A stretch of DNA of 64,000 nt from an uncultured Methanosarcinaceae archaeon (GCA_963721455.1 CAVRJG010000039.1:160001-224000); one strand, 5' to 3'. Counted from the first letter of the stretch, positions 51,567 through 57,710 are shown. The notes: generated by a model not told the origin, from the letters alone. Program-made: numbers and translations.

Positions 51567-53039
51567 ATGTCAGCAATATTCGAAATTCTCGACAAGGACG
51601 CAGGCGGCAGGATAGGCAGACTCAGGACTCCCCACGGGATTGTTGAGACACCTACCGTCATGCCTGTAATAAATCCGAATATCCAGCTTATCTCCCCGAA
51701 AGAAATGCGAAGTTTCGGGGCAGAGATTCTGATTACCAATTCTTATATTATCTACCGCAAGGAAGAGCTGAGAAGTGTCGCCCTTGAGAAAGGGCTGCAT
51801 GGGCTCCTGGGATTTGACGGGCCCATTATGACGGACTCGGGTTCTTTCCAGCTTTCCGTCTATGGGTCCGTGGAAGTTACGAATGAGGAAATCCTGGGGT
51901 TCCAGCAAAAGATAGGAAGCGACATTATTGTCCCGCTGGACATCCCGACGCCCCCTGATGTTCACTACAGGAGGGCTGAAGAGGAACTTGCAGTTACGGC
52001 CGAACGCCTGGAAGCTGCCCGCAGGTTTGTCCAGGGAGAGCAGCTCCTTGCAGGACCTGTCCAGGGCTCAACCTACCCCGAACTGAGGGAAAAAGCTGCT
52101 TCCCACCTGAAAGACCTCAATTTTGAAGTGTATCCCCTGGGAGCAGTTGTCCCGCTTATGGAGGCCTACCGTTACGCCGAACTTGTTGACGTGATTGCCG
52201 CATCCAAAAGGGGGCTTTCTCCAGCTTCGCCTGTCCACCTTTTCGGGGCAGGGCATCCCATGATGTTCGCCCTTGCAGTAGCCCTGGGCTGCGACCTTTT
52301 TGATTCGGCAGCCTATGCCCTTTACGCCAAGGACGGGCGCTATATTACTGTAACCGGGACCTACCATGTGGAAAAACTAAATTATCTACCCTGTTCCTGC
52401 CCGATCTGTTCGAGATATACTGCAGACGAATTGAAGAAAGCGGACAACATGGAAGAACTTCTGGGAAGGCACAACCTCTACGCTACTTTTGCTGAAATCC
52501 GGCTGATAAAACAGTGCATAAAGGACGGAAAACTGCTCGAACTTGTGGAGCAGCGCTGCCGTGCTCACCCGAAGCTTCTTGACGGGCTGAAAAGATTCTA
52601 TACCCACTCCCCCTGGCTTGAGCAGCTTGACCCGGCTACAAAAGGCACTTATTTCTACTGCGGGCCAGAATCAGCTTCCCGCCCCGAAGTCCTTCGGTTT
52701 GGAAAAAGGCTGGAAAGGTTCAGCCTGGAAGGCTCGGTGCTTATTCGCACAGGCCCGGTAAAAGGAGAGGGAAGCTACGACCAGATTCTCACTTTCAAAG
52801 CGCCTTTCGGGGCATTTCCTGTCGAAATGGAAGAAGTATATCCTTTCAATGCCGAAGTCTCGAAATTTCCGGATTACGAAGCCCTCAGCACAGCTTTCTC
52901 AAACACTCTTAAGCTGATGGAGCTGAACCCACAAGCAGAATTTACTTTTGTCTGCGAAAAAGAGTTCAAGCATCCGCTAATTGAAGAGATAAGTAAAAGA
53001 GCAAAACTGGTATACAGGGAAGACTGGAAAAAAGAATGA
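51567..53039 (+). CDS. tgtA: Archaeosine tRNA-guanine(15) transglycosylase
   Basis: GRIGRLRTPHG, ETPTVMPV, MTDSGSFQ, PVQGS and HLFGAGHP motifs; CSCPIC...H zinc site. Confidence 0.95.
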   Translation: MSAIFEILDKDAGGRIGRLRTPHGIVETPTVMPVINPNIQLISPKEMRSFGAEILITNSYIIYRKEELRSVALEKGLHGLLGFDGPIMTDSGSFQLSVYGSVEVTNEEILGFQQKIGSDIIVPLDIPTPPDVHYRRAEEELAVTAERLEAARRFVQGEQLLAGPVQGSTYPELREKAASHLKDLNFEVYPLGAVVPLMEAYRYAELVDVIAASKRGLSPASPVHLFGAGHPMMFALAVALGCDLFDSAAYALYAKDGRYITVTGTYHVEKLNYLPCSCPICSRYTADELKKADNMEELLGRHNLYATFAEIRLIKQCIKDGKLLELVEQRCRAHPKLLDGLKRFYTHSPWLEQLDPATKGTYFYCGPESASRPEVLRFGKRLERFSLEGSVLIRTGPVKGEGSYDQILTFKAPFGAFPVEMEEVYPFNAEVSKFPDYEALSTAFSNTLKLMELNPQAEFTFVCEKEFKHPLIEEISKRAKLVYREDWKKE

Positions 53040-53249
53040 GCTTTGAGGAGCTGATTAACGGCGCTGAACATTTTATAAGTCCTTCAGGCTTTCTCATAAA
53101 CAAACCCCTGCTTCAGAAAAGATAAAAAGAAAACTTTTTTGAGGTGCAAACCTTTATAGGACTACCTGTAAAGAACCCTCTAAATCGGGAAAGAGCCGAA
53201 ATACAAAATTCCTGATACAAAAACTCCCGTACAAACCGGAAAAGTATAG

Positions 53250-54200
53250 GTGAAACTGTTGTCCCTTACAGCAAGAATCGGGGAAATCAGCCCTTATCTG
53301 CGGCTGCTGCGACCCGAACTCTACTACATGGACCTTACCCTCCCTGCCTCGAGTGCAATCCTGGCTTCCTACCTGGCTACCGGAGGGCTTCCTCAATATT
53401 TTCCCTTCCTAATCGCCTTAATAGGCGGCTTTGCAGCCATTACCAGTTCATATGTTTTTAATGACTGCTGTGATATCGATATTGATACGATTAACCTGCC
53501 TGGCCGTCCCCTGCCCTCTTCCAGAGTTTCAAAGAGTTCGGCGCTTACTTATGCTCTCATCTTATTAGTGATCGCAGGCTCAGCAGCCGCTTACCTGAAC
53601 CCTGAATCTCTCCTGATCCTTGTTATTGCGGCTGGAACTATCACTATTTACTCAATCTTTGCAAAAAGGAATACTTTCCTTAGCTTTTTGCCAGTGGGTA
53701 TCTCCTACGGGCTTGTGCCTGTGGGCATCTGGCTCGCCTTTGACCCGGCAGGGCTCCTGAAAGGCAGCGACGGGGTAATTCTCCCCCTACCAGCTATCTG
53801 TTTCGGGCTCATGATGTGCGTTACGGATTGGGCCTTTACCCTTGGAGGAGTTGCCAGAGACGTTGAAGGGGACAGACTGAAGGGTGCCCCTACAATGCCC
53901 GTGACCTTTGGAATTCCCTTTACTGCCAGATTCGTGACTTTCTGGTGGATTGTCGGAGTTATTGCTTCAGTAATCATAGGCTGGTCAGCCCGGCTCGGGC
54001 CTGTGTACTTTGCAGGAGCACTTGCCTCAGGCCTCTGGATGCTTGCCCAGTGTTTTGATTTTATCAGGCACCCTACCCCGGAGAGGGGCGGCGCGCTCTT
54101 CCTTAACGGCTCAAACTACAGAGCAATTATGTTCGGATCAATGATCCTTGATGTGGTGCTGTGCATTTATGCAGGGGCTTACACCTCTATTCTCTGGTGA
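53250..54200 (+). CDS. UbiA-family membrane prenyltransferase
   Basis: NDCCDIDIDTINLPGRPLPS and RDVEGD Asp-rich motifs; about 8-9 TM helices. Confidence 0.9.
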   Translation: MKLLSLTARIGEISPYLRLLRPELYYMDLTLPASSAILASYLATGGLPQYFPFLIALIGGFAAITSSYVFNDCCDIDIDTINLPGRPLPSSRVSKSSALTYALILLVIAGSAAAYLNPESLLILVIAAGTITIYSIFAKRNTFLSFLPVGISYGLVPVGIWLAFDPAGLLKGSDGVILPLPAICFGLMMCVTDWAFTLGGVARDVEGDRLKGAPTMPVTFGIPFTARFVTFWWIVGVIASVIIGWSARLGPVYFAGALASGLWMLAQCFDFIRHPTPERGGALFLNGSNYRAIMFGSMILDVVLCIYAGAYTSILW

Positions 54201-54214
54201 AAAGGTAGAGAAAA

Positions 54215-55372
54215 ATGGACGCGGATATTATTGTAATAGGGGCATCTCCTGCAGGGCTGATGGCTGCCAGGAACGCCTGTGAAAAAGGATCTTCAGTCCT
54301 TTTGCTGGAAAAAAAAGGAGAAATAGGGCATCCCCCACATCCTGCAAATTCTTTTTTTAAGGGAATGTTAGATAAATGCGGAGAGAAGGCAGACCCTTCT
54401 TATGTGGTGCATTATCTCAAAGGTATGCAGATTATTTCCCCATCCGGGCGGACAGTGGAAGTTGAGACGCCCGGATACGCTATTGACAAGACAGAATTCG
54501 ACCGGTTTTATGCGAAGAAAATAATGAAAACCGGCGTAGACCTCCGAAAAGGAGTAGAGGTACACAATATTCACAGGGAAGGAGAGAAATTTACGGTCAG
54601 CACCTCGGCAGGGGTGTTCACGTCAAGACTCGTCATCATTTCCGACGGTATAAACTCAAAAATGGCTTCCCTCCTGGGCCTGAAAACAATGAAACACCCG
54701 GAAGATATTGCCTGGGGAATTGAACTGGAAGTCAGGGCTCCTGACCTTGGAAAACCGGAAATGTTTGAATATTACGTAGGAAACCATGCCCCTGGCTGGA
54801 AGACTACATACTCTCCGAGAGGAGGCGACAATGCCGCAATCGGAGCCTATGTGCGCAGATGCGGAAAGGACGCAACGCCTTACCTTAATGCCTGGGTTGA
54901 AAATTTCAAAAAGCTTAAAGGGCTCAAAGAGCTTGAAGTTGTAAGAAAACTTTCAGGCGGAGACCCTATAGTGACACTTCCGAATGAATACATAACCGAT
55001 GGAATAATGGTCGCTGGTGGGGCAGCCGGTCAGTCCGGGATAGGATATGCGATGAGGGCAGGCCAAATATGCGGAGATGTGGCTGCAGATGCCGTAAGAA
55101 AGGGAGATGTTTCAAAAAATGCCCTGTCAGAGTACCGAAAAACCTGGGAAAAGGAGTTTAAGGCAGAGCACTACCTGGGCCGAATAGGTCTTGAGACCCT
55201 CAGGAAAATGACGGACAGGGAAATTGATGAGATGGTAAGGGTCTTTGAAAAGGAGGACCTCTCATTCATTCATGGAAGTTCAGTTGAGCAGGCGATGCAG
55301 GTCTTTGCATTCATGCTAAAGAAAAAACCCTCTGCAATCTTAAAGTACAGAGCACTCTTCAGGAACAGGTGA
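54215..55372 (+). CDS. Geranylgeranyl-reductase-like flavoprotein (divergent)
   Basis: IIVIGASPAG FAD motif, LLEKK, IDKTEFDR, ISDGINS and AGGAAG motifs. Confidence 0.85.
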   Translation: MDADIIVIGASPAGLMAARNACEKGSSVLLLEKKGEIGHPPHPANSFFKGMLDKCGEKADPSYVVHYLKGMQIISPSGRTVEVETPGYAIDKTEFDRFYAKKIMKTGVDLRKGVEVHNIHREGEKFTVSTSAGVFTSRLVIISDGINSKMASLLGLKTMKHPEDIAWGIELEVRAPDLGKPEMFEYYVGNHAPGWKTTYSPRGGDNAAIGAYVRRCGKDATPYLNAWVENFKKLKGLKELEVVRKLSGGDPIVTLPNEYITDGIMVAGGAAGQSGIGYAMRAGQICGDVAADAVRKGDVSKNALSEYRKTWEKEFKAEHYLGRIGLETLRKMTDREIDEMVRVFEKEDLSFIHGSSVEQAMQVFAFMLKKKPSAILKYRALFRNR

Positions 55373-55450
55373 ACCTGGCATTTAAAAACAAGCAAAAAAG
55401 AGCAGAACTGACACAAACATCAGCATCAAATATCAGGTGCAGGAAAAAAT

Positions 55451-56590
55451 ATGCAGTACGATTTTTATAAAAGCCCACTTCTCAGAGTTTATACGGAAAT
55501 CGAAGACGGACACATGAGGGTGAAAACCAGCGGGGCTGCGTCCATCCTTATGAAAAAAAATCTTGAGAAAAACCTCTCGATTTTTGAAGGCGAAAAGCCT
55601 GCAAAAGTGGAGGCAGACAGGCTCATCTGTTCAACCTGGATGCCCCCGGTCCCAAGCCCGGGTTTTGACCGCCTGGTAAAAAGCCAGCTTTTTTCCATTC
55701 TGGGAAAAAAGATTCCAGACCAGGTCACTATCTCCATTACTGAAGAATGCCCGAACAACTGCATACACTGTGCCCTTCCTGACACAAAAAGCCGGGCGAA
55801 ACTTACACCGGAAACAGTAAAATCCACAATCGACCAGGTGCTCGAAATGGGCACAACCTTCGTGATCTTTGACGGGGGTGAGCCACTGACCTATCCGGGT
55901 TTAGAAGACCTGATCCGGTATGTGGATGCTGAAAAAGCCATTACAGGCATGTTTACCTCAGGAGTTGGGCTGACTGAAGAGCGAGCCAACCTCCTTAAAG
56001 AAGCAGGCCTTTATTCTCTCACCGTCAGCTTTGACAGCGCGCACGAAGATAAACACGATTACGTAAGGGGCAGAAAAGGAGTGTTTAAAAGTGCGGTTGA
56101 AGCAGTTAAAAACGGACTTAAGGCAGGGCTGCTTGTAAATATATATGTGGTGCTTTCCAGGGACAATGTAAACGAGCTTGAAGGACTGTATGCTCTTGCA
56201 TCAGAGCTTGGAGTCCACGAACTTTCTTTCTATGAAATAGTTCCTACTGGCAGGTGGATGGACCATGCTTCAGAAATAATGACCCCGAAAGATCTGAGAA
56301 AATTCGACAATTTTGTGTCCAGGGCCAGGGAGAAAGAAGGCCCCAGAGTGTTTCCTATCCCGCAGGTTATGAAGACCACAGGCTGTATGGCAGGCAGAAA
56401 GTGGCTGCATATTACCCCGGAAGGAAATATTCTTCCCTGTGCCTGTATCCCGATCCCTTATGGGAATGTCCATAGAGACAGCATAAAGGATGTCTGGAAA
56501 AAGATCAGGGAAGATCCTGCATATAATGCAAAGTGCTGCCTTATGAGAAACCCCGAGTTCAGAGAGAAGTATCTGAAGCTTTCAGAGTAA
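55451..56590 (+). CDS. Radical SAM protein with SPASM/twitch domain
   Basis: CPNNCIHC, FDGGEPL and HDYVRG motifs; GCMAGRKWLHITPEGNILPC...CC. Confidence 0.92.
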   Translation: MQYDFYKSPLLRVYTEIEDGHMRVKTSGAASILMKKNLEKNLSIFEGEKPAKVEADRLICSTWMPPVPSPGFDRLVKSQLFSILGKKIPDQVTISITEECPNNCIHCALPDTKSRAKLTPETVKSTIDQVLEMGTTFVIFDGGEPLTYPGLEDLIRYVDAEKAITGMFTSGVGLTEERANLLKEAGLYSLTVSFDSAHEDKHDYVRGRKGVFKSAVEAVKNGLKAGLLVNIYVVLSRDNVNELEGLYALASELGVHELSFYEIVPTGRWMDHASEIMTPKDLRKFDNFVSRAREKEGPRVFPIPQVMKTTGCMAGRKWLHITPEGNILPCACIPIPYGNVHRDSIKDVWKKIREDPAYNAKCCLMRNPEFREKYLKLSE

Positions 56591-56852: not shown

Positions 56853-57710
56853 TTAGACTAAACCCGACCTCTGAAGAGTCATCAAGTCTTCGGTGGTGAG
56901 TTTTGCTCCGCCCTTGAACTTATCGAAGATGGACTTGGCATCCTTCTGGAGTTCGGACTTGACAACACGGGACTTCCCATCTTTGTCTTTCTTCTTGAGT
57001 TTGAAGATTTCTTTATCAAGATCCCGAATTTCCTTCTGGGCGTTGATGAAAATCTTGTGCTGTTCGTCAGCTGCTTCCTGGGCTTTTACAAAGTCCCTGT
57101 GGGCAATGTCAGATTCTGCCCTGGTTCTGTCAGCCTCTTTGAAAGCGGTAATCATCTTCTCATGGTATTCCTGAGCCTGCCTGGCATATTCTGCCAGCTC
57201 ATTGTGGAATTCTGAGGCTTCATCCCTGATCTGCTGAGCTTCGTCCAGGATGTCTTTCAGTTCGAGGTTGCTTTCGAGCTGGACTTTTTTGACCTGGTAC
57301 TGCTTTTGAAGCACAGTAATCTTGCTAACAAGTTCCCTTTCCTTGCTTGTGCTCAGGACTTCGGTTTGCTGGGCAAATTCAAGACGGTCGATATCTTTTC
57401 TCAGGGCCTTGATAGAAGGGCCACCCAGGTTGTTCTGCTTCCTGATCGAATCTGCTTTTGCAAACAGTTCATTTGCCCTGGAATTGGTATCATCGCGCTT
57501 GTTCTTGTATTCGCTGACCTTCTCATTAATTTCGTCCCTGAGAACTTTTAATTCCTGGGCTTCGTTGATAAGGTCTTTTGTCTTCTTGTTCAGTTCATTA
57601 CGCTTTGCAGCGAGAGCGCTGGCTTCTGCATTTAAAGCGTTCCTTTTATCCTTGGATTCTTCAGAAATGTCCTTCAGATCTGATCTTTTTTTCTGCAATT
57701 CTTTTAGCAT
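56853..57710 (-). CDS. Long archaeal coiled-coil protein (COG1340-like)
   Basis: Continuous heptad pattern; LEFAQQTEVLS and FKGGAKLTTEDL motifs; GGAGG RBS. Confidence 0.85.
   Translation of the reverse strand: MLKELQKKRSDLKDISEESKDKRNALNAEASALAAKRNELNKKTKDLINEAQELKVLRDEINEKVSEYKNKRDDTNSRANELFAKADSIRKQNNLGGPSIKALRKDIDRLEFAQQTEVLSTSKERELVSKITVLQKQYQVKKVQLESNLELKDILDEAQQIRDEASEFHNELAEYARQAQEYHEKMITAFKEADRTRAESDIAHRDFVKAQEAADEQHKIFINAQKEIRDLDKEIFKLKKKDKDGKSRVVKSELQKDAKSIFDKFKGGAKLTTEDLMTLQRSGLV

Follow-up and report, generated by a model that had tools for sequence, protein, structure and literature searches.

A cluster of three genes at positions 53250-56590 of a 64,000-nucleotide stretch of DNA from an uncultured Methanosarcinaceae archaeon (GCA_963721455.1 CAVRJG010000039.1:160001-224000; the whole stretch is called the window below) probably encodes late steps in the biosynthesis of methanophenazine. 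The genes specify a membrane prenyltransferase of the UbiA superfamily, a divergent flavoprotein with the fold of the geranylgeranyl reductases (GGRs) and a radical S-adenosylmethionine (SAM) enzyme, rSAM1; they are referred to together as the trio. Judged from the sequences, O-prenylation of the phenazine head group would fall to the UbiA protein and saturation of the first isoprene unit to the reductase, while the head group would also be the target of the radical SAM paralogues. The operon had been put forward in the initial annotation as a methanophenazine candidate, a proposal that is now supported, and seems probable, on account of the spare lipid enzymes of the genome, the phyletic profile of the trio and the operon link of a second radical SAM paralogue (rSAM2) to a C25 prenyl diphosphate synthase.

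Methanophenazine carries membrane electrons in the methanogens and methane oxidisers behind much of biological methane turnover. Its structure, reportedly described by Abken in 1998 and by Beifuss in 2000, is said to contain one ether and a saturated first unit. The chemistry of the trio fits a product of this kind, with its single ether, its saturation of the first unit and its head group, whose origin is unassigned. The biosynthesis of methanophenazine was called hidden in Molecules in 2024 (PMC11477647) and undeciphered in mBio in 2021 (PMC8546582). In passages of the papers cited (PMC3017947, PMC6315138, PMC8546582), the only enzyme experimentally tied to its synthesis is geranylfarnesyl diphosphate synthase (MM_0789, MA0606), a connection credited there to Ogawa 2010 (as cited in PMC3017947 and PMC8546582). 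Passages of two transcriptome papers suggest the involvement of some UbiA gene (PMC6315138, bioRxiv 2022.07.20.500911). A full-text literature search, with most subscription journals outside its coverage, returned no paper assigning the genes of the trio to methanophenazine. The trio provides the best available candidates for the late steps and opens the methanophenazine question to direct tests in tractable Methanosarcina. It could also serve as a sequence marker separating methanophenazine from menaquinone users among uncultured anaerobic methanotrophic archaea (ANME) and their relatives. The chemistry involved is possibly new, namely aromatic O-prenylation by a UbiA enzyme, reduction of a single unit by a GGR devoid of the conserved Cys and assembly of a ring by radical enzymes.

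Distribution and linkage of the trio

All three genes lie on the + strand. The UbiA gene (53250-54200) has a GTG start and encodes 316 residues with a PF01040 domain. It is followed by the gene of the divergent GGR-fold flavoprotein (54215-55372; 385 residues), which scores below the cut-off of TIGR02032, and by that of rSAM1 (55451-56590; 379 residues), which has PF04055 and PF13186 domains and a C-terminal Cys cluster of SPASM/twitch type. The co-orientation and the gaps of 14 and 78 bp described in the initial annotation were confirmed by the listing of open reading frames (ORFs). Cluster look-ups showed that the names in public annotation are generic (UbiA family prenyltransferase, NAD(P)/FAD-dependent oxidoreductase, radical SAM protein), and they assign the window to Methanosarcina.

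The occurrence of the genes was determined in an order sample of 151 genomes, an even draw that was identical for every query, and in a phylum sample of 401 genomes. Family f1 is the Methanosarcinaceae; other families were identified from the source labels of exact protein matches as Methanocomedens/ANME-2 (f2), Methanoperedenaceae (f4) and Methanothrix (f7). The source label of f3 is Methanosarcinales archaeon; f2 and f3 are treated as two families of ANME-2 type, f2 being of ANME-2a/b type. In the order sample, UbiA and the reductase have the same distribution (f1 48/48, f2 18/20, f3 25/27, f4 1/48, f5 0/1, f6 0/6), and the radical SAM gene is found in every genome of f1 (48/48), f2 (20/20) and f3 (27/27), in 1/48 of f4, and in neither f5 (0/1) nor f6 (0/6). 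Where the misses in f2 and f3 could be traced, the genomes were 56-83% complete. The MqnA/MqnD family (PF02621) is absent from f1 (0/48), f2 (0/20) and f3 (0/27) and present in f4 (45/48), f5 (1/1) and f6 (5/6). No match to MqnA/MqnD was found in G159 (67% complete), the sole f4 genome that bears the trio. The trio is thus exactly complementary to the MqnA/MqnD family in this sample, and its phylogenetic profile fits that of methanophenazine users, as the initial annotation would lead one to expect.

According to one report, all Methanosarcinaceae analysed contain methanophenazine (PMC3017947). Excerpts of another describe futalosine/menaquinone genes and no methanophenazine for Methanoperedens enrichments, and an expectation of methanophenazine in ANME-2a (PMC5244752). 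Compared with these accounts, the trio appears to be present in methanophenazine organisms and absent from their menaquinone-using relatives, with f3, f10 and f33 assigned from their genes alone.

In the phylum sample, UbiA was detected in f1 (52/52), f2 (2/2), f7 (12/12), f10 (3/4) and f33 (3/3) and in none of the other families given (e.g. 0/64, 0/54, 0/28). Five UbiA-bearing genomes of f7, f10 and f33 also encode the reductase (41-46% identity; 32% in f33) and radical SAM paralogues, and none of the five (0/5) has a PF02621 match. When 185,579 species, each represented by a single genome, were scanned with a pattern, 275 stretches proved to encode the reductase subfamily. Among the best matches listed for homologous proteins and related loci, Methanosarcinaceae alone are represented, so these set no outer boundary.

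Side by side and in the same order, the three genes are found in all 16 Methanosarcinaceae loci extracted, and they are adjacent in G159 as well. In the f33 genome G407 the order is UbiA, radical SAM, reductase, a ThiC-family gene and a second UbiA-like gene. The reductase and radical SAM genes are adjacent in f10, with UbiA elsewhere; UbiA and the reductase are adjacent in f2, where the radical SAM gene lies apart from them. The three genes are mostly scattered over separate contigs in f3 yet co-occur, and co-occurrence of this kind points to shared function rather than hitch-hiking. Among 11 loci of other lineages, no further recurrent family was seen in the flanks of the trio. The G407 locus (L037, G407:C270, 10143-16307) has an endonuclease V gene preceding UbiA; its ThiC-family radical SAM protein (567 bits) shares 58% identity across 420 residues with a stretch at G000:C39:106525-107784, which lies outside the window (G000 is the window's own genome, and C numbers denote its contigs).

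The C25 synthase and the lipid enzymes of the genome

On a contig other than that of the window, the genome encodes a geranylfarnesyl (C25) diphosphate synthase (G000:C44:38276-39163; NF040627, 609 bits against a cut-off of 600). The gene of rSAM2 (G000:C44:36959-38164) follows 111 bp behind it and is operon-linked to it. This pairing is adjacent in all 28 Methanosarcinaceae genomes for which both positions were given; the two genes overlap in two genomes of Methanothrix type and are adjacent in one f10 genome, and the pairing thus occurs in three families (f1, f7, f10). They are unlinked in the 19 f3 genomes with both positions given. The synthase itself was found in 48/48 genomes of f1, in 22/27 of f3 and in G159. 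The Methanosarcina enzyme (MM_0789/MA0606; NF040627) would take part in the pathway proposed for the trio, and its profile agrees with that of the trio in f1, f3 and G159. A CcmE-domain gene adjoins rSAM2 in one f2 genome, G055.

The initial annotation had called for canonical lipid enzymes elsewhere in the genome, and these were found. A separate digeranylgeranylglyceryl phosphate (DGGGP) synthase is encoded at G000:C66:46708-47577 (NF009521, 407.4 bits against a cut-off of 296), and two intact canonical GGRs are encoded on C53 and C30 (TIGR02032, 238 and 218 bits). Given the C66 gene, the window UbiA is not the only DGGGP synthase candidate of the genome, and lipid synthesis would, by gene content, have no need of the trio.

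It is nevertheless conceivable, if unlikely, that the trio makes or tailors another isoprenoid ether, such as archaeol in modified form, a lipid containing C25 or a polyprenyl carrier in which one unit is saturated. The nearest characterised relatives of two of its proteins do act on membrane lipids (DGGGP synthase 6m31; GGRs 3oz2 and 3atq), the top 30 structural matches of the radical SAM model include the archaeal tetraether/macrocyclic archaeol synthase 7tol (Z 21.2), and some GGR paralogues are known to saturate the chains of dolichol or menaquinone. Such a function leaves unexplained both the complementarity with MqnA/MqnD and the recurrent pairing of a radical SAM paralogue with the C25 synthase, and the canonical lipid enzymes are present in addition. 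Moreover, the known core lipids of these organisms are C20, and hydroxyarchaeol has been reported from Methanoperedens, which lacks the trio.

The UbiA family is represented by five loci in the genome, i.e. the C66 gene, a tandem pair on C70 (NF009511), a C71 gene (NF010117) and the window gene. NF009511 was found in 0/10 genomes of other lineages (f1, in another genus, and f2, f3, f4, f5, f6 and f7), and NF010117 had sub-threshold matches in 2/2 Methanoperedenaceae and none in Methanothrix. By these distributions the C70 and C71 paralogues fit methanophenazine worse than the window UbiA does; C66 is the DGGGP synthase. As a separate observation, the C70 pair (580 and 535 bits) is part of a second cluster of isoprenoid type (G000:C70:12000-28000), which also contains genes for an amidinotransferase/ADI-like protein, Methyltransf_33, a radical SAM/SPASM protein, another radical SAM protein, a deacetylase, a GT4 glycosyltransferase and LPG-synthase-TM. 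Several GGR-family fragments with internal stops, one of them scoring 190 bits on TIGR02032, lie at G000:C41:110504-112868 and are decayed copies of a canonical GGR.

Features of the three proteins

The UbiA protein matches PF01040 with 137.8 bits (cut-off 34.2) over profile positions 4-246 of 250. It reaches no NCBIfam cut-off, the best scores being 106 bits against 269 for PRK12884 and 85.7 against 296 for the DGGGP synthase model PRK12882; on the DGGGP synthase models it stays well below threshold (NF009521, 85.7/296; NF009522, 66.1/353). Both Asp-rich motifs that had been reported for it are present in the translation, as NDCCDIDID and DVEGD. The first is kept in 13/13 aligned orthologues and DVEGD in 10/13, the remaining three having DIEGD, DVPGD and DVFGD; orthologues are 44-70% identical across lineages, and 50-70% between families. 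The nearest solved relative is the DGGGP synthase of M. jannaschii (6m31, E 6e-13); like it, the window protein belongs to the membrane UbiA fold family and carries the two Asp-rich motifs. DGGGP synthase links an allylic diphosphate to a hydroxyl through an ether and is spread over all archaea, whereas the window UbiA is confined to a few lineages and its proposed acceptor is an aromatic hydroxyl. The window protein is, by these sequence traits, a distinct subfamily of the UbiA superfamily, and is proposed to be a geranylfarnesyl:hydroxyphenazine (or precursor) O-prenyltransferase.

The reductase scores 112.9 bits on TIGR02032, below the cut-off of 158.8 and below the 238 and 218 bits of the C53 and C30 GGRs. 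Its structural model, made with AF2 (predicted local distance difference test, pLDDT, 90), matches best the Thermoplasma GGR 3oz2 (Z 41.6, root-mean-square deviation 2.5, 371/385 residues), followed by the Sulfolobus GGR 3atq (Z 36.3), FixC (33.8) and halogenases (about 30). According to this model, the protein has the lipid-GGR fold over its full length, the C-terminal helical domain included.

Departures of the reductase from GGRs at the motifs known as YxWxFP, GDAA...PxxGGG and the conserved Cys were assessed against the canonical GGRs of the genome itself, in an alignment that joined these two with 14 orthologues from six families and in a second alignment of 20 orthologues. The departures pointed out in the initial annotation (GASPAG, PGWKTTYSP, and GGAAGQSGIG with a shortened loop) proved to be real and conserved across orthologues. 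Most members of the subfamily have G(A/S)SPAG where canonical enzymes have GAGP(A/V)G, with GLSPAG and GSSAAG as single variants, and PGWK(S/A/T)T(Y/F)SP in the region of the canonical (Y/F)xW motif. The loop GGAAGQSGIGY represents a 6-residue deletion relative to GDAARQSDPITGGGI of the genome's own canonical GGRs. A further departure, absent from the initial list, is the replacement of the Cys of the canonical PVRC(A/G)EG stretch by HPAN(S/T)FF or SPANTFF (single variant PNANTIF). Since they are held in orthologues of six families, single-sequence variants aside, these departures are subfamily traits and not noise. The window reductase thus shares the full-length fold of the archaeal GGRs (3oz2, 3atq; TIGR02032) and differs from them in GxSxxG, HPAN(S/T)FF, PGWKxTYSP and the 6-residue deletion in the GDAA...GGG loop. 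From its sequence, it is proposed to saturate the first (ether-proximal) isoprene unit. In saturating a single unit in the tail of a membrane electron carrier it would resemble MenJ, which, along with the Archaeoglobus menaquinone prenyl reductase, we take to be a chain-specific relative of GGRs; it differs from MenJ in scoring just 22 bits on the MenJ model.

The loss of the catalytic Cys, of YxWxFP and of part of the flavin loop indicates a remodelled active site, and the same fold serves halogenases, hydroxylases and FixC. The pathway could accordingly be right with the roles of its enzymes differing, for example with the flavoprotein acting on the head group as a PhzG-like ring oxidoreductase, or the radical SAM enzyme acting on the chain. 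We consider this improbable, as the full-length match to lipid GGRs tops the other classes (Z 41.6 and 36.3 versus 33.8 and about 30 or less), and the known structure needs a first-unit reductase, for which no other candidate shares the profile.

The third protein, rSAM1, scores above threshold on PF04055 (84.4 bits) and on the SPASM domain PF13186 (31.3 bits). It has CPNNCIHC at residues 100-107, nearly invariant C-terminal Cys at 312, 330 and 363, and, at its N-terminus, some 85 residues peculiar to the family. Conserved in the family are CPNxCxHC, an N-terminal STWxPPxP that is invariant and, towards the C-terminus, three to four Cys. The scores of rSAM1 on NCBIfam equivalogs all fall far short of the cut-offs (AhbD 123.7/500; NirJ 125.4/500, with NirJ2 the best; PqqE 120.2/381). 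In the AF2 model (pLDDT 91.5), the core of residues 67-373 matches SkfB (6efn, Z 27.1) and also BlsE, SuiB, PqqE and viperins. Foldseek placed the maturases of ribosomally synthesized and post-translationally modified peptides SkfB, CteB and SuiB first, over nearly the full length; the second alignment covered mostly residues 67-373, so that an N-terminal peptide-recognition domain is no more than conceivable. With the SPASM/twitch enzymes (SkfB 6efn, PqqE 6c8v, SuiB, BlsE, AhbD/NirJ), rSAM1 has in common the CxxxCxxC cluster, a partial TIM barrel and a C-terminal auxiliary Cys cluster, with core matches of Z 24-27. It is unlike them in that its N-terminus of about 85 residues with STWxPPxP is uncovered by structural matches, and in that the window type forms a three-paralogue set confined to trio-bearing lineages.

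Three matches per genome are the usual outcome of the radical SAM query. In the window's genome, the two paralogues of rSAM1 are 42% (rSAM2) and 38% identical to it. The third paralogue (G000:C33:62731-63957) is devoid of all three cysteines of CxxxCxxC and of those of the C-terminal cluster. The same loss is seen in the sister genus g17, in an intact ORF that is 79% identical, and the cysteines are kept by orthologues from two other Methanosarcinaceae genera, f2, f3, f7 and f10. By its sequence, the third paralogue looks like a conserved pseudoenzyme specific to Methanosarcina.

A role of the trio in a prenylated tetrapyrrole or haem-type cofactor pathway, with a haem O synthase-like UbiA and AhbD/NirJ-like radical SAM enzymes, is very hard to credit: haem O synthase models give 68-80 bits on the UbiA protein, the radical SAM paralogues have AhbD, NirJ2 and AhbC among their top NCBIfam scores (87-127 bits) and rSAM2 has its CcmE-domain neighbour in one f2 genome, but every such score is far under the curated cut-offs (210-650), we know of no prenylated haem from Methanosarcina, and the C25 synthase link suggests a long isoprenoid tail. 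The Methanoperedenaceae, named among the ANME with multihaem cytochromes in one paper (PMC5244752), also lack the trio.

Proposed pathway and surroundings of the locus

The order of the genes, the families they belong to, their subfamily traits, their co-distribution and the C25 synthase link are read directly from the genomes; from these we infer the chemistry of the steps, including the role of each enzyme and the UbiA substrate (2-hydroxyphenazine or a precursor). In the proposed pathway to methanophenazine, C25 geranylfarnesyl diphosphate would be made by the synthase at G000:C44:38276-39163. The UbiA protein would then move the C25 chain onto the hydroxyl of 2-hydroxyphenazine or its precursor, giving an allyl aryl ether in the membrane by a reaction like that of DGGGP synthase. 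The flavoprotein would reduce the C2'=C3' double bond alone, in the unit next to the oxygen. Reduction would have to follow transfer, because a chain with a saturated first unit is no longer the allylic donor that UbiA chemistry needs. For the rSAM1 protein and its two paralogues a part in head-group chemistry is envisaged, most likely the construction or tailoring of the phenazine ring, and this radical SAM ring step is the least certain of those proposed.

A more far-reaching possibility, put forward tentatively, is that the archaeal phenazine ring is made by a radical SAM route unrelated to bacterial Phz. It would employ the three SPASM/twitch paralogues, of which one is found with the prenyltransferase and the reductase, one with the C25 synthase, and the third has decayed to a pseudoenzyme without clusters in Methanosarcina. 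Five to six genes might then make up most or all of the pathway and give a genomic marker for respiration of the methanophenazine type in uncultured archaea, two lineages from beyond the class among them.

The proposed pathway has a functional analogue in the futalosine (Mqn) pathway, in which the radical SAM enzymes MqnC and MqnE build the ring and the UbiA enzyme MqnP adds the tail of the carrier; within the order, one gene set takes the place of the other. They are not orthologous, as the window UbiA scores 34-53 bits on MqnP models and the radical SAM enzymes are of a different subfamily. The product of the futalosine pathway is a C-prenylated naphthoquinone, whereas an ether-linked phenazine is proposed here.

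Several observations weigh against the assignment of the trio to methanophenazine. The C25 synthase was found in 0/20 f2 genomes at E<=1e-60, and the f2 genomes G025, G050, G055 and G030 each have one trans-prenyl diphosphate synthase of another type (118-129 bits). Without a C25 synthase, the tail donor in f2 would have to differ; if a phenazine carrier is made there, it may have a C20 tail, or more than one chain length may come from the single synthase. As relatives are not independent, the complementarity of trio and MqnA/MqnD may rest on two or three evolutionary events. The f10 and f33 lineages appear as trio bearers from their genes alone, and we know of no methanophenazine in cultured members of the Methanocellales, the source label of one f10 genome. 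With no conserved Cys, a shortened flavin-binding loop and GxSxxG, the activity of the reductase is not assured, and the remodelling of its active site may have to do with an aryl ether substrate, or else some other reaction may be catalysed. Among 24 Methanosarcina relatives there is one, G006 (99% complete, 10 contigs), with a reductase gene that is split in two and contains one TGA and one TAG (G006:C7:478832-479987), next to an intact UbiA gene. This is either a pseudogene or an assembly error, and if real, it would make the reductase dispensable.

Expression evidence is weak as well. Only one metatranscriptome, from a wetland, contained a small share of the words (0.19), and five of its short contigs fall on 53513-56534, four of the five being at least 99% alike and four of the five lying within the three genes. 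These contigs touch parts of each gene of the trio and none bridges two genes in this one metatranscriptome, so that co-transcription is not shown.

A scan for promoters and terminators gave no excess over shuffled sequences with a bacterial sigma-70-type model, which does not apply to archaea. The flanking ORFs are neither of them related to the trio by position; they are a + strand ORF of 490 residues ending at 53039 on the 5' side and a convergent - strand ORF ending at 56853 on the 3' side. The upstream intergenic region (53040-53249, + strand) extends over 210 bp between the former ORF and the start of the UbiA gene.

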